A stretch of DNA of 64,000 nucleotides, taken from NCBI GenBank assembly GCA_965215185.1, contig OZ244034.1, positions 2,336,001 to 2,400,000 on the forward strand, read 5' to 3'. Source of the stretch: Acidimicrobiia bacterium. GTDB taxonomy: Bacteria; Actinomycetota; Acidimicrobiia; Spongiisociales; ZC4RG35. Shown here one piece after another: positions 3,697 through 64,000 of this stretch; position 1 is the stretch's first letter, and the number at the start of each line of letters is the position of its first letter. Made by a program: the position numbers and the translations under genes. The notes beneath the pieces are model-generated. The model saw only the letters and a list, made by a program, of their open reading frames with translations, did not search any database and had not been told where the DNA came from.

Positions 3697-4355
3697 GACG
3701 CCCCTATAGTCAAATTTTGGGTTTAGGGGGTGGTGTGTTGTCGGGTTTTGTGGTCGGTCATGACGCGTTGGTAGACCTCGCGGGCGAGGAAGCGTTTCAG
3801 GCAGCGGATGATGTCCTTTTTTGAGAGGCCCTGGGCGGTGCGACGAGCGACGTAGTCGATGGTGGGCTAGTGGAATCGCATTCGTACTATCGCTACTCGG
3901 TACAGCGCCGCGTTGGCTTGACGGTGCCCGCCTCTGTATAGACGATGCCTGTTGGTCTGTGCGGAGGAAGCCGGAATCGGACACGTGCCACAGAGTTTGG
4001 CGAATGCGGCCTCGGAACGGATCCGTTCGGGGTTGTCACCGAACACGATGAGAAGCTCCGCCGCGGAATCGGCTCCGATGCCAAAGCCGTCTCGCAGTGT
4101 TGGGGAGGCTTGGGCGGTGAGGTCGTCGAGCACGGTGTCGTGGGAGCGGATCTCGGTGTCGAGGTGGAGCCAGCGGCGTGCTAGTGCTCTTGAGTGAGTA
4201 CTTGGCGGAGGCTGTGGGGGTGTTGATCACCGAGACCCGAAAGCGTGCGCAACGGTTGATGAGCGCTTTGTTAGAAAGCCCATCGAGGGATTCGCGCAGC
4301 TCGGCCGGGGTGTTGACGATGATTGCCTTGAGGGTGATGATCGCCGAGGTTCGGC
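3697..4355 (-). mobile_element. IS110-family element D: 3' half of recombinase (pseudogene) plus right end
   Basis: FGDNPERIRSEAAFAKLCGTCPIPASS...RHRLYRGGHRQANAAL; in-frame TAG at 3867-3869; right end TTGACTATAGGGGCGTC abuts IS3 codons AAC GCC. Confidence 0.85.
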
Positions 4356-4790
4356 GAGCCTGTATACATGTCTGTGTGAGGTGGGTTCTTTATTGCTGTG
4401 GCTGGTGTGAGAGCCGGTCCGAGAGGAGAGTGTTTTGATGCCTATTGAACATGATGTGACGGAGGCGGCTGTGGTGGCTGCTGGTGTGGTGTCTGATGAG
4501 GTGGTGGAGGCGGTGGTTTCGGACGCTGCTGCTGGTGGTGTGGACCTTCTGGGTCCTGATGGGGTGTTGGCTGAGTTGACGAAGCGGATTCTGGAACGTG
4601 CTTTGGCTGAGGAGATGACCGATCATCTGGGCTATGAGTCCGGTGATCCGATGGGTCATGGTACGGGTAAGAACCGTAACGGGTCCTCTCCCAAACAGGT
4701 GCTGACTAAAGATCGGCGCGGTGGATTTGGACATTCCACGGGACCGTAACGCTACGTTCGAACCGAGGATCGTTCCCAAGGGCGCCCGGC
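4356..4790 (+). mobile_element. IS256-family element: left end and 5' part of transposase (frameshifted)
   Basis: End GAGCCTGTATACATGTCTGTGTGAG; LLGPDGVLAELTKRILERALAEEMTDHLGY...RNG and DIPRDRNATFEPRIVPKG. Confidence 0.9.
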
Positions 4791-5230
4791 GCCGTAGCTG
4801 CCGGTGCCTTCCACCCCAACCCGCACCACACGACCCTGGGATCTCAACCAGCCGCCCAGTTCCTCAAAGCCGGTTGCATCGGCCGGGAACGGAGCGGTTC
4901 CCAGGACTCGACCGGCGGTGTCCACTACCGCCGCGACATGACAATCGCGATGGGTGTCCACCCCGCCAAACACCTCAACCAGGCTCTCTTTTTGTGACAT
5001 GAATGTCTTCTTCTTCCTTGGATAGACTCGCGGGTATCACCGGACCGGAAGCGGTGGACAGAACACTCATGATGGTGTGGAGAAGCAAGGCTCCTATAAG
5101 GTCACATCCGCTCCCGGGTCGGGGAGTGTCCCCAGGCCGAAAGCAGGCCGACAGATCATGATAAGGCACAAACGGCCAGTTTGTCAAGGGGTCAGACCCG
5201 CCCCGACCAGGGACCCCACCATTATCGAGT
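4783..5230 (-). mobile_element. IS110-family element C: left end, bridge-RNA region and recombinase N-terminus
   Basis: ORF from 5000: FGGVDTHRD...GVEGTGSYGAG; left end ACTCGATAAT at 5230; fused to IS256 through the microhomology cccggcgc. Confidence 0.85.
5045..5215 (-). ncRNA. Putative IS110-C bridge RNA (left target guide TTGACAAAC at 5187-5179, right target guide CATG, donor guides ATAGGAGC and GAGTG)
   Basis: Scaffold aligns with the A1 and A2 non-coding ends; variable segments fall at the guide positions; boundaries approximate. Confidence 0.75.
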
Positions 5231-5589
5231 GTTTTGCAAATCGCTTTTCGGGGGTGGGGGTTGTTTGAGCTTTTTGGTGGGGTGGTTTGGGGTTGGGGCG
5301 AGTTCTGGGGGTTTAGTGGGGGGTTTTCCAGTAGCCGGTAGAGGTGGCGGGCGATGTACCGTTTGAGGCAGCGTCGTGCTTCGCGGGTGGTTTTTCCTTG
5401 GCTGATGCGTTTGGCTATGTAGGCCTGGGTTTTGGGACAGTGGCGGGTGCGGGTGATGGCCATGTTGTGGAGCGCGCGGTTGAGTTGGCGGTCACCGCGT
5501 CGGTTGAGTCGGTGGCGGGTGCGTTGCCCTGAGGAGGCTTGGAGGGGTGCTACGCCGGCTAGCCGAGCGAAGGCGGCTTCGTTACGGCA

Positions 5590-5766
5590 GCGGCAGCGTC
5601 CGAAACCACCGCCTCCACCACCTCATCAGACACCACACCAGCAGCCACCACAGCCGCCTCCGTCACATCATGTTCAACAGGCATCACAACACTCTCCTTT
5701 CGGGCCGGCTCTCACACCAGCCACAGCAATAGAGAACCCACCTCACACAGACATGTATACAGGCTC
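5590..5766 (-). mobile_element. Second IS256 left-end fragment, inverted relative to the 4356 copy
   Basis: Reverse complement of roughly 4356-4530 with few differences. Confidence 0.9.
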
Positions 5767-6249
5767 GGTTTGAGCGCCTCGGCGGACGGTTTCCAGTACC
5801 CGCAGGGCTTCTCGGTCTCCCCGAGCGCGGGGAGCCGAAAGCCGGGAGCGTCCCAGCGCCTGGCGGGCGGCTCGTCGAGCGTCCAACGCGTCGGTTTTGG
5901 CGCCGTCGCGGGTCGGGTGGGGATGGCCGAACTCTATTACCCATTCACCAGCCTCAGAAAGGTAGTCGGTGACTCCTGCTCCGTAGCTACCGGTTCCTTC
6001 CACCACCCACGCTCGTTCCGCGGATGTGTGCTGGTTTGTCCACTCCAACAGTTGAGCATATCCCATGCTGGTTGTCCCAAAGCGCGCAGATGTCAACTCT
6101 CCGGTGGTGGCAGTGTCCACTACCGAAGCGGTGATCCAGTCACGGTCAGGGCCTATTCCTATCGTATGTTTTACCATCTCGGCTAGCATCGTATTTGTTC
6201 CTCTTTTCTGGTGTTACCGGTTAGAGCTGGCGTACCCCCGAGGAGCGGC

Positions 6250-6460
6250 AACCGTTACGGCAGACCTGTGATGGGTCACACCCATTTGGGTGGACAGGCT
6301 TCTGATCAGGCCAGCAACGAAGCACCCAGGCGGGCGCAGCGAAGGGTGTCGGACACATCGATTTGAAGACACGGACCGGTCGGTAAAGACAGAAACGGTC
6401 AGGGTTTTGGAGGGTCACGACACCACCGCTGCGCCTAGCCTGGCAGACTCTGAGAGCACC
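6250..6460 (-). ncRNA. Putative IS110-B2 bridge RNA (left target guide CCAAAACCC at 6410-6402, right target guide CAAATCGA at 6365-6358)
   Basis: Scaffold aligns with the B1 left end; donor guides AGAAGC and CACAG conserved; boundaries approximate. Confidence 0.78.
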
Positions 6461-6462
6461 CC

Positions 6463-7686
6463 CTACATACTCACAGGGTTTGGTGCGGTGAGCCATTGGT
6501 GGTATCGGGTGGCGAGTTGGTGGTTGTGGTAGAGGCCTCGTTCGAGTTGTGAGAGGCGGTTTGGGTGGGCGTGGACGGCTGTGGCGGCCTGAGCGAGAGT
6601 GGTCCGGGTTTTTTGGCGTAAACAGCGTAGATCGGCGCCGTTGGGTGTTGAGGGTGGGTCGGTCAACAGTCGGTAGACCTGGCGGGCGATGTGGCGTTTC
6701 AGACAGCGGATGATCTCTCGGCGGGTTTTGCCTTCCGCCCGGCGTTTTTCGACGTATTCGATGGTGGTCTGGTCGCAGCGCATCCGAGTGGTGGCGATCC
6801 GCCACAAAGCGTTGTTGGCTTGGCGGTCGCCACCGCGGTTGAGGCGATGGCGCACAGGTCCTGAGGATGCCTGGACGGGACTGGCGCCGCACAACGCCGC
6901 GAAGGAAGCTTCCGATCTCATGCGTTCGGGGTTGTCACCAGCTGCGACCAATAAGGCGGCGGCGGTGTCCGGGCCGATCCCTGTGGTGGCCAACAGCGCC
7001 GGGTTGGCCCGGGCGCAGAGATCTTTGATCCGGGTGTCGAGTTCTCCGATCTCTGCGGTGAGGGTCTGGTATCTGCGGGCCAAGAGACGGAGGACATGTT
7101 TGGCGTAGGTGATGGTGGTGTCACCATCACCCGGACGAAAACCGGCACAGACCTTCCCGCGGGCTTTGGGGGAGAGCCCCCGAAGTTGGTGTTTGACCTG
7201 GTCGGGAGCAGTGACCACCAGGGCGTGCAGCTGGTTGATGGCCTGGGTACGGGCCTTGATCGCCGAACGGTGGGCCACTGTCAGCATCCGTATTGCTTCT
7301 ACTGGTCCGTTCCCGCTTTTGGGCAACCCGGTGGCCTGCCCGTTCAAAGCAGCCCGCGCCGCTGCCCGGGCGTCTGTGACATCGGTCTTGCCGAAGCGGC
7401 GGCGTAACTGGCGGTTGGGCCGGTTCACTTCCACCACCTCAACACCAATGCTCATAAGGTGGCGGGTCAGGCCGGCGCCGTAGCTGCCGGTGCCCTCCAC
7501 CCCGACCCGCACAACACGACCCAGGGACCCCAACCAGTTGTTCAACCGTTCATAACCGGCGACATCGGCCCGAAACGGCGCCGAGCCAAGGACCCGACCG
7601 GTGGCATCCACCACCGCCGCGACATGGGTATCACGGTGGGTGTCGACCCCACCAAACACAATCCGATCATCCTCTGACATATGCAT
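6463..7686 (-). CDS. IS110 recombinase A1 with C-terminal XRE-type HTH extension
   Basis: DEDD residues (GVDTH, GVEGTG, KTDVTDA), ASSG serine, RHRLNRGGDRQAN; tail DLRCLRQKTRTTLAQAATAVHAHPNRLSQLERG; last codons come from the B2 end. Confidence 0.92.
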   Translation of the reverse strand: MHMSEDDRIVFGGVDTHRDTHVAAVVDATGRVLGSAPFRADVAGYERLNNWLGSLGRVVRVGVEGTGSYGAGLTRHLMSIGVEVVEVNRPNRQLRRRFGKTDVTDARAAARAALNGQATGLPKSGNGPVEAIRMLTVAHRSAIKARTQAINQLHALVVTAPDQVKHQLRGLSPKARGKVCAGFRPGDGDTTITYAKHVLRLLARRYQTLTAEIGELDTRIKDLCARANPALLATTGIGPDTAAALLVAAGDNPERMRSEASFAALCGASPVQASSGPVRHRLNRGGDRQANNALWRIATTRMRCDQTTIEYVEKRRAEGKTRREIIRCLKRHIARQVYRLLTDPPSTPNGADLRCLRQKTRTTLAQAATAVHAHPNRLSQLERGLYHNHQLATRYHQWLTAPNPVSM

Positions 7687-7753
7687 CTTCTCCTTCAAAG
7701 GTAGAATTCGTTTCTGTTCTCTCTGACCCGAAAAAACGGTGGACAGACCACTC

Positions 7754-9153
7754 TGTGAGTATTGGGGGGGCCTTGTAGAGGCTGCCAGGATTGGCGTCAG
7801 CGGTGGTGTCGTGACCCGAGACCACTCTGACCTTTGTGTCTTTGCCGTGATATGTCCGACACCGCCGCGACGCCCCTGGGCGTTCCGTTGCTGGCCTGAT
7901 CAGAAGCTTGTCCACCCATGGGGTGTGACTCATCACAGTCCTGCCGTCACGGTTTGCGCCTTGTGAGGCACTAGCCCAGTTCGCACAAGAAAGAGAAGGT
8001 TTCTTATGTTGGCCACAATGGTAGAGCATGTGATCGGGATCGATCCTGATCGTGACCGGGTCACCGCCGCGGTAGTAGACACTTCCACCACCGGAGAACA
8101 AGCGACTGCGGTGTTCGGAACCACCCGGCTGGGATATGACCGGTTGTTGAAATGGGCAGACCAGCACACTCAGACGGCTGAGCGGGTGTGGTCGGTGGAA
8201 GGCTCGGGCAGTTACGGAGCAGGCGTGACCACCTATCTCGCTGCCCGAGGTGAACTAGTGGTGGAGTTCAACGATCCCACCCCTACCCGCGACGGCGCCA
8301 AAACCGACGCACTGGACGCTCGGCGGGCCGCTCGCCAGGTGCTGGGCCGTCCTTGGCCATCTGTCCCGCGGGCTAGGGGAGACCGCGAAGCCTTGCGAGT
8401 GTTGGAGACCACCCGCCAGGGCGCCCAAGGGGCCAGAGTATCGGCCATCAACCAGCTAAAAGCCCTGGTAGTGACCGCGCCAGTCGATCTTCGGGACCAA
8501 CTCCGAGGTCTGAGCACAACTGCTCTGGTGGCCAAGTGCGCGGCGTTTCGAATCCGACCCGCCTCCGTCAACGAACTGACCGCCACCAAACAAGCCCTAC
8601 GTTCTACAGCCAGACGCATCCGCAACCTCAACAATGAAATAGCAGAGCTGAAAACGCCCATCGCCGAAATGGTCACAGCCGCAGCTCCGCAACTGCTCGA
8701 CCAATTCGGGATTGGTCCGGTCACCGCCGCCCAAGTGTTCATCGCCTGGTCCCACCCAGGCCGATGCCGCAACGAGGCCGCGTTCGCTCGCCTGGCCGGC
8801 GTAGCACCCCTCCAAGCCTCCTCTGGACAACAAACCCGCCACCGGCTAAGCCGCTACGGCGACCGCCAACTCAACCGCGCCCTCCACACCATCGCTATCA
8901 CCCGCGCTCGGGACTGCCCCAAAACCCGGGCCTACATCGCCAAACGCATCAGCCAAGGAAAAACCACCCGAGAAGCCCGCCGCTGCCTCAAACGGTACAT
9001 CGCCCGCCACCTCTACCGACTCCTACAAAACCCGCCCCCAACCCCGGCCGAACCAGCCCCACCGTTCCACTCGGAAACGCCGCAACACCCCCACAAGCTC
9101 AAACATCCTCAAATCCCCGCCAAAAGCCTCGATTTGGAGAACATAGAAGCATC
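7754..9153 (+). mobile_element. IS110-family element B1, apparently complete, TC core at both junctions
   Basis: ...AGACCACTC|TGTGAGTATT...CATAGAAGCATC|ACATGG; removing it restores the A-type non-coding end. Confidence 0.92.
7770..7960 (+). ncRNA. Putative IS110-B1 bridge RNA (left target guide AGACCACTC 7819-7827, right target guide GTGA 7847-7850, donor guides AGAAGC 7902-7907 and CACAG 7934-7938)
   Basis: All four guide segments match the observed target and the reconstructed circle junction; boundaries approximate. Confidence 0.85.
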
Positions 9154-9292
9154 ACATGGCAAGAGCAAGGCTCCTATCAGGTCACAGCCGCCCTGTCGGG
9201 AGAGCACCGCCCCCAGGCCGGAAGCAGGCCGACAGATCACCACAAAGGCACAACAGCCAGGTCGGAGTCGAGTCAGACCCGCCCCGGCCTAG
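8006..9292 (+). CDS. IS110 recombinase B1 (ORF reads through the right end into flanking DNA)
   Basis: GIDPDRD, VEGSGSYG, KTDALDA, APLQASSG, RHRLSRYGDRQLNRAL. Confidence 0.92.
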   Translation: MLATMVEHVIGIDPDRDRVTAAVVDTSTTGEQATAVFGTTRLGYDRLLKWADQHTQTAERVWSVEGSGSYGAGVTTYLAARGELVVEFNDPTPTRDGAKTDALDARRAARQVLGRPWPSVPRARGDREALRVLETTRQGAQGARVSAINQLKALVVTAPVDLRDQLRGLSTTALVAKCAAFRIRPASVNELTATKQALRSTARRIRNLNNEIAELKTPIAEMVTAAAPQLLDQFGIGPVTAAQVFIAWSHPGRCRNEAAFARLAGVAPLQASSGQQTRHRLSRYGDRQLNRALHTIAITRARDCPKTRAYIAKRISQGKTTREARRCLKRYIARHLYRLLQNPPPTPAEPAPPFHSETPQHPHKLKHPQIPAKSLDLENIEASHGKSKAPIRSQPPCRESTAPRPEAGRQITTKAQQPGRSRVRPAPA

Positions 9293-9300
9293 GGGCACCT
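9154..9300 (-). ncRNA. 5' part of the putative A1 bridge RNA (left target guide TCGACTCCGACC at 9271-9260, right target guide GGTG); continues at 7753-7735
   Basis: Near-identical scaffold to 61855-61990 with different guide segments. Confidence 0.8.
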
Positions 9301-9312
9301 ATAAGTATGAGT

Positions 9313-9845
9313 GGTTGGAGTCGACGTGGACGGGCGTAAACATGTGCTGGGGGTATGGCTGGGCGACGGCGGTGAAGGCGCCAAATACTGGTTGTCGGTA
9401 CTTACCGAGATACGCAACCGAGGCCTCGAAGACGCGCTGATCGTGTGCTGTGACGGCCTGAAAGGGCTCCCGGACGCGATCGAGGCGACATGGCCCCAGG
9501 CGCTGGTGCAGACCTGTGTGATCCACCTGCTGCGAGCCTCTATGCGGCTCTGCAGTTGGAAAGACCGAAAAACCATTGTGGCGGGCTTGCGACGCGTTTA
9601 CACCGCGGTAAACGCCGAAGCCGCTGTTGAGGCGTTGGACGAGCTCGAGGAACAATGGGGAAATCACTATCCCGGCGTTATACGAATATGGCGCCAGGCG
9701 TGGGAAGAGTTCACCCCGTTCCTGCGGTTCCCGCCAGAGCTTCGCAAGGTCGTGTACACAACCAACGTCGTCGAAAGCGTCCACTATCAACTACGGAAAG
9801 TCACCAAAACCAGGGGGCATTTCCCCACCGACCAATCCGCCCTCG
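9313..9845 (+). mobile_element. IS256-family transposase middle/C-terminal fragment (continuation of the 4356 element)
   Basis: VGVDVDGRKHVLGVW...CCDGLKGLPDAI...QTCVIHLLR...YTTNVVES...RGHFPTDQSAL. Confidence 0.9.
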
Positions 9846-60383: not shown

Positions 60384-60510
60384 CCCCGCACCCAAACTGG
60401 GCACCGCCCGCCCACCAACAGCCGGACCGTCGATCAACGCTCGTTCCTAGCGGCCCGGCATCCAGGCCGGGGCTTGATCGGCGTAGTCGTTGTCGATGCT
60501 CCTATGGTTG

Positions 60511-61772
60511 TCAAATCGAGTTTTGGTGGGGTGTGAGGGCGGTGAGCCATTGGTGGTATTGGGTGGCGAGTTGATGGTTGTGGTAGATGCCTCGCTCGAG
60601 TTGTGAGAGGCGTACTGGGTAGGTTTGTAGGGCTGTGGCGGCGTGGGTGAGGGTTGTTAGCGCGTTTTTGCGTAGACAGCGAAGATGGGCGCCGTTGGGA
60701 GTTTCGGGTGGATTGGTGAGCAGGTGGTAGATCTGGCGGGCGATGTGGCGTTTCAGGCAGCGGATGATCTCCCGGCGGTTTTTGCCTTCTGTTTGTCTTT
60801 TTTGGGCGTAGGCGATGGTGGTCTGGTCGTAGCGCATGCGGGTGATGGCGATCCGCCACAGGGCATTGTTGGCTTGGCGGTTGCCGCCCCGGTTGAGACG
60901 GTGGCGTATGGTCCGTCCCGACGACGCCTGGACGGGACTGGCGCCGCACAATGCTGCGAAGGACGCTTCCGATTGCATGCGTTCGGGGTTGTCACCAGCG
61001 GTGACCAACAGGGCAGCGGCGGTGTCGGCGCCGACTCCGGAGGCGGCTAACAGCGCCGGTGTCGGCGCCGACTCCGGAGGCGGCTAACAGCGCCTGGGCG
61101 CAGAGATGGTTGATCTGGGTGGTGAGCTCTTCGATCTCGGCGGTGAGCGCCTGATATCGGCGGGCCAGGGAACGCAGCGCCTTTTTGGCGTAGGTGACGG
61201 TGATGGTGGCTGTTCGGGGACGGAAACCGGCGCAGGCCTTGACGCGGGCTTTGGCCGGCAGTCCCCCCAGTTGGTGTTTGACCTGGTCGGGGGCGGTTAC
61301 CACCAAAGCGTGCAGCTGGTTTATGGCCTGGGTGCGGGCTTTGGTCGCCGAACGGCGGGCCACCGAAAGCATCCGTATTGCTTCCACCCGACCGTTGCCG
61401 CTTTTGGGCACCGCAGTGGCCTGTCCGTTGAGAACCGCCCGTGCCGCTCCTTGGGCGTCGGTGGCGTCGGTCTTGCCCAACCGGCGGCGCAACTGCCGGT
61501 TGGGACGGTTCACCTCTGTCACCTCGACACCGGCCTCGGTTAGATAACGGGCCAGGCCGGCGCCGTAACTGCCCGTGCCCTCTATACCGACCCGGACCAC
61601 TCGACCGTGTGACCCCAACCAGTCGCCCAGTTGCTGATAACCGGCCTGCATCGGCCACGAAGGAGGCTGTTCCCAAGACCCGACCGGTGCTGTCCACCAC
61701 CACCGCCATATGAACATCCCGGTGGGTGTCCACCCCACCAAACACAATCCGATCATCCTTTGACATATGCAT
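60511..61772 (-). pseudogene. IS110 recombinase A2 with C-terminal HTH; frameshift near 61650 and a 37-bp duplication
   Basis: Three frames homologous to A1; tandem 37-mer at 61021-61057 and 61058-61094. Confidence 0.9.
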
Positions 61773-61809
61773 CTTCTCCTCTCAAAGGTAGAATTCGTTT
61801 CTGTTCTCC

Positions 61810-61990
61810 ACTGACCCGAAAAAGCGGTGGACAGACCACTCAGAATGAGGGAGAAGCAAAGCTCCTATCAGGTCACAGCCGCTCTGTCGGGAGAGCACCG
61901 CCCCCAGACCGAAGGCGGGCCGACAGATCGACTCAAAGGCACAATCGGCCAGGTAGCTGTCGGGTCAGACCCGCCCCGGCCTGGGGGCAC
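61810..61990 (-). ncRNA. Putative IS110-A2 bridge RNA (left target guide GACAGCTACC at 61961-61952, right target guide GTCG, donor guides ATAGGAGC and TGAGTG)
   Basis: Guides match the flanks GACAGCTAACC|GAC and the circle junction ATAGGAGCATC|ACTCA; boundaries approximate. Confidence 0.82.
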
Positions 61991-64000
61991 CTATAAGTAT
62001 GAGTGGTTAGCTGTCTCAGGTTGCTGCCATCCGCATACATGACAAAGATCTCATCATCACCGTTAAGATCACTGGTGAAGGCAATTGCATAGCCATCCGG
62101 GGACCACACAGGACCACGGTCATCAGCGTCGTTGTCGGTGAGTCGCTGCTTGTTGGACCCGTCCGCGTCCATCACATAGATCTCATCATCACCGTCACGG
62201 TTACTGGTAAAGGCCACGCGGGTCCGATCCGGTGACCACACCATCCCATCTGCCGGGCTGTAGTTGTTGTCGGCCAAGGCTTGCGGCTCGCCCCCCTCCA
62301 CATTCACTGCGAATAGCCCGAAGTTACGACCGCGGGCATTGGCTACATACAACTGCCCACCATCCAGAAACCAGACAAATCCTTCCACCGAAGTGGTGTC
62401 GTCGGTGAGCTGCCGAACATATCGGCCTTGGTCTCCCACCACAAATACCTCCAGGTCGAAGCCGGAACCCCGACTGGTGAAAGCAATTGTGGCACTGTCG
62501 GGCGCCCAAGTTGGATCCCACACCTGATAGTCACTGTCGGTCATTTGGTACAGGTTGCCGCCAACCGGATCCACCACAAAGATCTCACTGTCCCGGCCCC
62601 GGCTGCCCAGAAAAGCTATCCACATGCCGTTGGGAGACCACACCGGCCCAGTGTCATTGTCGTTGTTGTAGGTGAGTTGCTGCTGATTGGCGCCGTCATC
62701 ATCCATCAGGAGAATCTCGCTTCGGTAGGAGCGGGTGAAGGCGATGGTCTTGCCGTCAGGCGACCAGGCCTGTTCGCTTTCAGCAATGTGGTTGCTGGTG
62801 AGTTGTCGACGCGTCCCACCTTCGGCCTCTACCACGAAGATCTCGGTGTCACTGCCCAAAACGCCCTGATAGGCCACATACTTGCCGTCGGGGGACCATT
62901 CGGGATGGCTGTCCTGGATAGAGTCATCGGTGATTTGCTGTAGGTTGCCACCATCAGAATCCACTACAAAGATGTCTCCATGCAGGGAGAAGGTAATCCG
63001 CTTGCTGTCAGGCGACCACGCCGGATAGGCACCGTGTACAAGGAGGCGCGGGTTTCCGCCGTCCGAATCCATCAGAAAAATATTTGAATGGCTATAGAAG
63101 GCGATGGTTGTGCCGTCAGGCGACCACGCCAACGCCCAATCGCTGTAATCGTTGTCGGTGAGTTGTCGATCGTTAGTACCGTCCGAATCTATCAAGTAGA
63201 TCTCGGCGTTGGGATCTCCCTGAGGGTGACTGTGGTAGGCGATTCGCTTACCATCCGGTGACCAAATCAGGTCATCGATGGAAGCCCTTGGGACAGTTGG
63301 CGCAGATCCCCGCCATCGGCATTAACCACGAAGAGATCCCCCGAAGAGACAAAAGCGACTTGGGTGCCGTCAGGCGACCACGCCGGAAGCCGACCACTGG
63401 CAAGATATTGCTTGCCTTCCCCATCCGCATCAATAGCGAAGATCTCACCCCGGCTGTGGAATACAATTCGAGAACCGTCAGGCGACCACGCCGGGTCGTC
63501 TCCGTGAGTCAGGATTCGGTGATTGCTGCCGTCAGCATCCATTACCACTGCGTCATCATCCTGTCCGCGGGTGTCGTACCTGGTGAAAGCGATCCGCATC
63601 TTGGCTTGTTCAGCAACCGCGTAATCCGCAACCGGCAGGGCAACCAGACCCAGAGAACGGGCCAGGAATGTGGCCATCTCCCCTCGGGTCACCGGAACCT
63701 CGGGACAGAATCTCGCCGGGTCAGTGGCACACCCTCGCGTAACATTGGCGGCCGCCAAAGAGTCGATGCTCCCCGCGTGAGTGTTGCCCACGGTGTCAAC
63801 AAACCGGCGGAAGCAGCGGGGCGCAGACCCATGGCGCGGACGAGGAATGTTGCCATCTGCCCACGACTCACGAAAGCATCGGGACAGAACTTCTCCGGAT
63901 CGGCGCTGCGACCTTTGGTTAGACCCAACTCGGCCAGCCTTTCCACATACGGTGCCCACCACTGTCCGGCGTCCACATCCGCGAATCGCGAGGAAATCAC

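Follow-up and report, generated by a model that had tools for sequence, protein, structure and literature searches.

The question raised by this locus is whether the position of an IS110-type insertion sequence (IS), here named B1, next to a broken IS256-family transposase gene reflects the guide sequences carried by that element. The junction lies in a 64,000-nucleotide (nt) stretch of an Acidimicrobiia bacterium genome (contig OZ244034.1, positions 2,336,001 to 2,400,000), referred to below as the window. Bare coordinates are those of the window, while C1 designates the genome's single 3.12-Mb contig; B denotes IS110-type elements with a minus-strand transposase gene of the kind found at 6463–7698, and A the plus-strand kind represented by 8006–9292. 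The analysis supports an IS110-type guide matched to a coding stretch of the IS256 transposase, with B1 sitting exactly there. Positions 9238–9324 very probably comprise the target-binding loop in B1's bridge RNA gene, the left tip of B1 and its junction with the truncated IS256 gene.

A guide matched to IS256 at the B1 left junction

Three segments define the junction:

9260..9271, minus strand: B1 left target guide, TCG + ACTCCGA + CC, last 9 nt working; located by alignment of left ends, in the internal loop of stem-loop 1, 5' side
9313..9324, minus strand: left target and 2-nt core left in the junction, TCGACTCCAA+CC; register fixed by alignment of 12 left ends
9238..9244, minus strand: B1 right target guide TGTGGT plus core-pairing G (plus strand CACCACA), on the 3' side of the same internal loop

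On the plus strand the left guide reads GGTCGGAGTCGA (minus strand TCGACTCCGACC) and the flank GGTTGGAGTCGA (minus strand TCGACTCCAACC). The two are identical at 11 of 12 positions, as the initial annotation of this DNA had reported, the single difference being a G in the guide and an A in the flank. The identity is read directly, but its effective length is shorter. The upstream TCG also occurs in close relatives of B1 whose flanks do not match it, and since it is kept in elements aimed elsewhere it is not counted as guide; the match is thus 8/9 (ACTCCGA+CC against ACTCCAA+CC), comprising 7 nt and a 2-nt core. The mismatch places rG opposite dT on the bottom strand, and the G-T wobble suggested earlier therefore has the correct geometry, as the left guide pairs with that strand. 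Relatives of the IS256 gene carry C at the mismatched base, so the left guide may simply match a different IS256 allele at the wobble position. The right guide had been described as GGTG; the corresponding CACC is present at 9238–9241, but the guide is 6–7 nt long and reads TGTGGTG. The adjacent GAT at 9235–9237 matches the right tip of B1 itself, ATC, at the handshake/core positions.

The IS256 target and its reconstructed site

The DNA beyond the B1 tip is as follows:

9313..9843, plus strand: 3' fragment of an IS256-family transposase gene (target DNA); blastn 94.4% identity over 534 nt to C1:2505993-2506526

The open reading frame (ORF) at 9311–9985 matches Pfam Transposase_mut (PF00872, E=1.5e-54) over profile positions 187–364 of 379, and hence only its 3' part; the homology covers positions 705–1238 of the other genomic IS256 copy and stops at 9843. 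The sequence from 9313 is GG TTG GAG TCG ACG..., which in the IS256 frame reads GTT GGA GTC GAC GTG GAC GGG CGT AAA (VGVDVDGRK). The proposal that the flank is the antisense of the IS256 codons for VGVD is therefore borne out, with the gene cut mid-way.

Together the two guides define an IS256-sense 18-mer, TGTGGTGGTCGGAGTCGA, composed of TGTGGTG/GTCGGAGTCGA and encoding YVVVGVD. Full-length IS256 relatives (∼1.36 kb, 82–85% identity) are present in congeners, with matches in 17 of 41 genomes and in 12 of the 16 of the same genus. In 11 intact congeneric copies the site has the form TA[C/T]GTGGTGGTCGG[T/C]GT.GA, the congeneric allele being TGTGGTGGTCGGCGTCGA and that of the window ..GTTGGAGTCGA. 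All 11 agree with the 18-mer at 15–17 positions, and 10 carry GTGGTG; GTC, which includes the base mismatched in the window, is likewise found in 10 of the 11. The initial annotation had predicted that the missing flank would be CACC, corresponding to a valine codon GTG, and that GGT would immediately precede the matched segment in intact copies. GGT does precede GGT[C/T]GG in 10 of the 11 congeneric copies, and GTG is found, in the right orientation, both in these relatives and at a second IS256 junction described below. In the window's own genome the 18-mer has no site at ≤1 mismatch and one, unrelated, at ≤2 mismatches.

A second IS256 junction

Elsewhere in the genome, an IS256 5' fragment (C1:1612508-1612678) ends ...TACGTGGTG / ...CAGCGTACGTGGTG at the base predicted by the guides and in the predicted orientation. 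It is followed by a T and then by the reverse complement of a B-type right-end remnant, ATAGGAGCGTC; this remnant in turn follows the right end of a different B element. Each type of IS256/IS110 junction is unique in the genome, the left-side one occurring in the window and the right-side one at C1:1612678. The two may represent halves of one insertion that were later separated.

Several observations weigh against this interpretation or against the matched-guide reading in general. At the second junction (C1:1612679-1612715) two extra bases, AC in the sense of the element, lie between the right tip ..GCGTC and the expected ACCACG. The B1-type host body is missing at this locus, and the adjoining nested element, compared with a reference copy, is 98.9% identical in the window but 92.6% identical at C1:1612678; in view of this unequal identity the latter may not be the other half. 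A left-tip/IS256 junction, allowing ≤2 mismatches, was found among 16 congeneric genomes only in the window's own genome, and the left junction as an exact IUPAC pattern gave no matches in the species collection, which may omit that genome. Among the intact IS256 copies examined none carries the exact 18-mer, the best agreeing at 17/18 in copies that are 82–85% identical. The sole uninterrupted copy in the genome, C1:2505850-2507230, is frameshifted and reads TACGTGGTCGTTGGAGTGGA, matching 14 of 18 positions (GGTCGTTGGAGTGGA, or 13/15, against the predicted 15-mer), and it differs at the shared core base, with GTC for GTG. Donor and target share one of two core bases, unlike the strict CT of IS621. 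Finally, an Rfam 15 scan of 4900–9500 at E≤1 returned no matches, although coverage of bridge RNAs by Rfam was not established. With respect to the two extra AC bases, core duplication and a shifted cut were considered as their source, and neither fits.

A right-junction pattern, too loose to be informative, retrieved at least 120 loci in the species collection. Among the matches listed none had an IS256 context; four had right-end-like contexts, of which only one was close to a B-family right end. The search for further IS256 copies interrupted at the same base yielded one right-side junction in this genome, with its two extra bases, and none in the 16 congeners or the species collection.

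These data bear on the possibility that a later rearrangement joined B1 to the IS256 fragment, the guides matching IS256 through past targeting elsewhere or partly through coincidence with an ancestral TCGAC..AC guide. The region is indeed heavily rearranged, with IS256 pieces at 4355–4793, 5588–5767 and 9313–9843 and illegitimate joints; the B1 guides are only three bases from non-IS256 guides of relatives, and the right-side junction elsewhere carries the two additional bases. This explanation is nevertheless unlikely, as the joint lies at the exact base, and in the orientation, specified by the guides and in the register of the other copies, which would be a surprising outcome of a later rearrangement.

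Ownership of the guide by the minus-strand element

The guide abuts a plus-strand IS110 gene. The IS256 target holds, but the guide is not part of that gene and belongs instead to the minus-strand element, whose parts are interrupted as follows:

9154..9312, minus strand: B1 left end, with tip ACTCATACTTATAGG, target-binding stem-loop and left donor guide ATAGGAGC (9170–9177); 90–92% identity to a second B copy, B2, at 61855–62008
7754..9153, plus strand: nested IS110-family element A1, complete, within the B1 donor-binding loop; Pfam PF01548 and PF02371; 98.6% identical copy at C1:1665806-1667201
7687..7753, minus strand: rest of the B1 5' non-coding region, with right donor guide GAGTGG (7748–7753) and leader to the transposase start; B2 homology spans 7698–7753 and then breaks
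6477..7686, minus strand: B1 transposase gene (ORF 6463–7698, 411 aa) and truncated right end; Pfam PF01548 (E=1.3e-24) and PF02371 (E=1.2e-18)

The homology of the B1 upstream region to B2 breaks at 7753 and resumes at 9154, with 1,400 bp between. As this split surrounds a complete A element, the guide is assigned to B1. In B2 the stretch homologous to 9154–9312 is non-coding and immediately precedes the minus-strand transposase gene; among the remaining copies examined, guide-bearing homologous regions likewise sit 5' of B-type transposase genes. From this comparison, the putative B1 bridge RNA gene is split by the nested A1.

An alternative is that the guide region is the 3' non-coding part, in the style of IS1111 elements whose seekRNA lies downstream, of the plus-strand gene at 8006–9292, and that this element is the one aimed at IS256. 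That ORF (428 codons) reads across the guide region, which lies directly downstream of its conserved domains. The tail of the ORF past ∼9050 is, however, low-complexity read-through into B1. Furthermore, the 98.6% identical twin of A1 has identical ends (TGTGAGTAT... ...CATAGAAGCATC), terminates at ...CATAGAAGCATC and continues into unrelated DNA, while A1 has its own 5' guide region with a guide matching its own flank. Together with the homology of 9154–9312 to regions 5' of minus-strand-type transposase genes, these features make ownership by the plus-strand gene very unlikely.

The protein encoded by B1 aligns with solved structures in the PDB, namely the ISCro4 transposase (9t56, E=2.7e-10) and IS621 (8wt6, E=1.3e-8). 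The ISCro4 alignment retains the D (GGVDTH), E (VEGTGSYG), D..D (KTDVTDAR) and SG motifs, residues of which would be equivalent to D11, E60, D102, D105 and S241 of IS621. The right end of B1 is cut at 6476/6477 by another IS110-type element, A2, as indicated by the right-end alignment. With the donor loop split by A1, the right end cut by A2 and the match of the IS256 fragment stopping at 9843, B1 is now defunct, a fossil.

Guides covary with flanks across the B family

The genome carries 12 copies of the B left end, which were aligned with 40 nt of flank each. A constant scaffold (...CACTCATACTTATAGG..GGGTCTGAC[variable]CTGGC..TTGTGCCTT[variable]GATCTGTCGGCC...) encloses two blocks that vary between copies. 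The first of these reproduces the left flank of its own copy, examples being AACTCAACC, TATGAAACC, TTGACAAAC, ACTGAAATC and TACCAAACC. Matches were scored by the longest exact run, as B sublineages differ by one base at the left tip and a fixed register fails. The longest run between guide and own left flank was 8–9 nt in 10 of the 12 copies and 6 and 4 nt in the remaining two, while guides matched the flanks of other copies over mostly 3–6 nt. In a permutation test with 10 non-redundant pairs, none of 20,000 permutations reached the observed sum. The positions of guide and flank are both fixed by homology, so there is no free register. Matches 9 nt long agree with the 7+2 scheme of IS621.

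Read as its reverse complement and preceded by ATC, the second variable block reproduces the right tip (..GGAGCATC) followed by the right flank. As the right flank of B1 itself is missing from the window, matches were counted in the six complete copies of this genome:

C1:979958: 6/6 (flank AAGCCA)
C1:3012710: 5/6
C1:3102721: 5/6
C1:1098936: 5/6
B2: 3/6
C1:1097487: 3/6

The left guide is real, and the family-wide covariation contradicts a chance repeat. Short GC-rich repeats occur commonly in this genome and the pair at B1, taken singly, spans only 12 nt, but a chance direct repeat or insertion-made duplication with no guide function is extremely improbable, given that guides covary with flanks across the 12 copies and in congeners and that the right guide, a second and independent segment, agrees with the opposite half of the IS256 site in relatives.

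Redirection among congeneric relatives

Seven elements in five congeners have left ends ∼95% identical to that of B1, five of them with a complete right end at ∼1.47 kb. They carry the guide TCGACACC[A/T]AC or TCGACAGCGAC; the complement of the right guide is AACACA, GAAACA or AACAGA. The IS256 sequence is absent from the left flanks of all seven. Three agree well with the flank to their own left (L024, ACACCAAC, 8 nt; L026, ACAGCGAC, 8 nt; L028, CACCAAC, 7 nt), three others (L029, L030 and L025) do so with at least one mismatch, and L031 hardly matches. On the right side the agreement is 5/6 for L030, 4/6 for L026 and L029, 2–3/6 for L028, and poor for L031. The guides of B1 are separated from those of L028 and L030, both from the same congener (G004), by three substitutions, of which the left guide holds two and the right guide one, and the elements of that congener occupy non-IS256 sites. 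On these alignments, the difference in the B1 guides is a natural redirection of the kind described for ISEc21 and ISMch6.

Predicted bridge RNA and proposed mechanism

RNAalifold analysis of eight family copies predicted two stem-loops, each with an internal loop, comprising 50 pairs, 11 of which display compensatory change. In the predicted fold the variable blocks occupy opposite sides of the internal loop of the first stem-loop. The second holds ATAGGAGC, matching the right end ...CATAGGAGCATC, and CATGAGTG, the complement of the left tip CACTCAT. Inspection of the alignments by eye shows that (C)ATGAGTG in the predicted RNA is the reverse complement of this left tip; the match of the donor-loop guides to the right and left tips of the element likewise stems from inspection.

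In family copies genome-wide, right junctions, which display the donor core, always read ..GCA-TC, while CC, AC or TC precedes ACTCAT at left junctions. The left guide follows the target core and the right guide the donor core, only the second core base, C, being common. By inspection, a TTGACA in the right end and a CATACT in the left tip would be 17 nt apart if the ends abut, and the upstream IS256 DNA offers B1 no −35 box. A putative promoter with this spacing would arise only if the ends were joined in a circle.

The mechanism suggested by these features would begin with transcription of the B1 5' non-coding region, the product folding into two stem-loops that both contain an internal loop. 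The 5' side of loop 1 (ACTCCGA+CC) has the target top-strand sequence left of the crossover and would pair with the bottom strand, and the 3' side (TGTGGT+G) is complementary to the top strand right of the crossover. The recombinase would then join a circular B1 copy to the IS256 site, cutting after the 2-nt core, of which only the second base, C, is common to donor (TC) and target (CC). Subsequent decay involved insertion of A1 (7754–9153) into the donor loop, truncation of the right end by a further IS110 element and separation of the IS256 halves. Both the causal role of RNA pairing in the B1 insertion and the place of the DNA cut are inferred.

Comparison with known systems

The predicted mechanism and architecture are those of the known IS110 bridge RNA system, and the known mechanism is left unchanged. 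In IS621, the left guide is identical to the target top strand and pairs with the bottom strand, the right guide is complementary to the top strand and the core is contained in both (PMC11208160); the donor tip, once strands have been exchanged, pairs with bases adjacent to the right guide (PMC11208158). B1 resembles IS621 in its recombinase with DEDD and Tnp domains, in a guide RNA gene that occupies the left end, upstream of the transposase gene, and in the two internal loops. It also shares the 9-nt left guide (7 nt plus a 2-nt core) equal to the top strand, the complementary right guide, the donor-loop guides matching the element's own ends and the handshake bases beside the right guide (PMC11208160, PMC11208158). 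The relationship is distant, the best stretch of the 8wt6 alignment being C-terminal (query residues 213–346). The B family differs in its cores (donor TC; target CC, AC or TC, with only the second base shared), and the IS621 target is a repetitive extragenic palindromic (REP) element, whereas that of B1 is a transposase coding sequence.

The seekRNA redirection within the pairs ISEc21/ISMch6 and ISEc11/ISXne4 (PMC11187229) is similar to the case of B1: the scaffold is kept, the target segments differ and the sites differ accordingly. In comparison with those pairs, B1 is separated from its nearest relatives by as few as three substitutions, and its new site is inside another IS. Expanded IS110 loci (bioRxiv 10.64898/2026.08.14.744561) resemble this window in that IS110 elements pile up at one locus; the available portion of that preprint describes cargo and tandem growth, and guides against other transposase genes or sibling ends are not described in it. 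In the literature searched, no paper was found that combines bridge RNA, IS110 and IS256, though the supplementary target tables of PMC11208160 may list such targets, and none was found on IS110 elements aimed at other transposase genes, nor, judged by title or abstract, on IS110 nested insertion or hyperparasitism of that sort.

Two points are of interest here. A few substitutions have apparently retargeted the guides to a motif conserved in a transposase, and the donor core, TC, has only its second base in common with most targets (CC, AC). That an IS can be aimed specifically at another mobile element is already known: the IS1111 relatives IS4321 and IS5075 reportedly target the ends of Tn21. 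Like B1, these are insertion sequences with a DEDD transposase and a specific target in another mobile element; unlike B1, they belong to a different subgroup, carry the guide downstream of the gene and target a transposon end rather than transposase coding sequence.

B1 provides a natural-sequence case in which a bridge RNA appears to have been re-aimed by ∼3 point changes onto a conserved motif of an unrelated transposase. For bridge-recombinase engineering, the family offers natural guide–target pairs with mismatched first core bases and a G-T position. A side inference, as tentative as the broader proposal made below, is that donor and target need to agree at only one of their two core bases.

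Targets of the other IS110 elements

Three more IS110 elements with guides lie in the window:

60504..62008, minus strand: B2, frameshifted transposase gene (60434–61780); the sole window guide aimed at non-mobile DNA
5232..6475, minus strand: A2, A-type IS110 with internal damage; its guides, TCCAAAACCC and GATTTG, correspond to the B-type right end (CCAAAAC.C / GATTTG)
4777..5231, minus strand: B3, left end and ∼75 codons; guide TTGACAAAC aimed at an IS110 right end (GATTTG.CAAA); 98.9% identity to C1:1097038-1097485

The window targets are thus IS256 for B1, an IS110 right end for B3, the B1 donor loop for A1, a B right end for A2 and, for B2, the 3' end of a PD40 β-propeller gene (61933–63195). 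The earlier statement that four of the five guides in the window point at mobile DNA holds, the guide of B2 being the one that does not.

The left guide of A1, GAGACCACTC, matches the flank AGACCACTC over 9 nt (7744–7759, 9148–9165). Its right guide (complement ACGGCA) agrees with the right flank, ACATGG, at only 2/6 positions, compared with 5/6 for the flank of its twin, ACGGGA. With its 2/6 match on the right, A1 may have entered a sibling family's guide RNA gene by a half-matched (off-target) insertion.

The left flanks of the 12 B copies, 9 of which are in IS DNA, are distributed as follows:

IS256: 1 copy
A-type IS110 transposase gene, same site: 2 copies
IS110 right ends: 3 copies
ISL3 transposase C-terminus (PF01610): 2 copies
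IS3-type orfA (PF01527; flank repeated 14 times in the genome): 1 copy
PD40 gene: 1 copy
Without assigned identity: 2 copies

In this one genome the B family therefore lives mostly inside other insertion sequences, a concrete instance of transposon-on-transposon targeting. A broader proposal, advanced tentatively and somewhat doubtful as a whole, is that the B family is a parasite of mobile elements. Its guides would have diversified by a few substitutions per sublineage, homing into conserved coding stretches of unrelated transposases (IS256, ISL3, IS3-type orfA and sibling IS110) and into the promoter-bearing right tips of sibling IS110 elements, while A-type elements would home into the B guide RNA gene. 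If true, multi-copy, dispensable and conserved transposase genes would be selected 'safe harbours' for IS110, making IS110 elements natural inactivators of the transposons that compete with them.

Further features of the window and genome

The A1 transposase gene contains, at 8868–8876, AACTCAACC, the full 9-nt left half-site of one B sublineage; that sublineage breaks up two further A-type copies at the corresponding position (C1:979958 and C1:374096). Another nest, three elements deep, is present at C1:1095538-1099236, where a B copy adjoins a B left end that is truncated and in opposite orientation; the right end of the second has received, at the TTGACA box, a third B copy with guide TTGACAAAC. 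The B2 transposase gene contains a direct tandem duplication of ∼37 nt (cggtgtcggcgccgactccggaggcggctaacagcgc, twice) at 61008–61085, resulting in ORFs 60434–60949 and 60992–61756.

The IS256 5' fragments at 4355–4793 and 5588–5767 are in opposite orientations, with 180-nt arms that are 97% complementary. The former is joined to the B3 transposase fragment at 4776/4777 via a short shared GC-rich stretch, and the latter replaces the middle of the A2 transposase gene. At 391–1671, a 327-nt unit occurs four times in tandem within a long open frame, the later copies being 95%, 95% and 77% identical to the first, and the repeats are followed by a CCGCCTCC-type microsatellite at 1613–1816.

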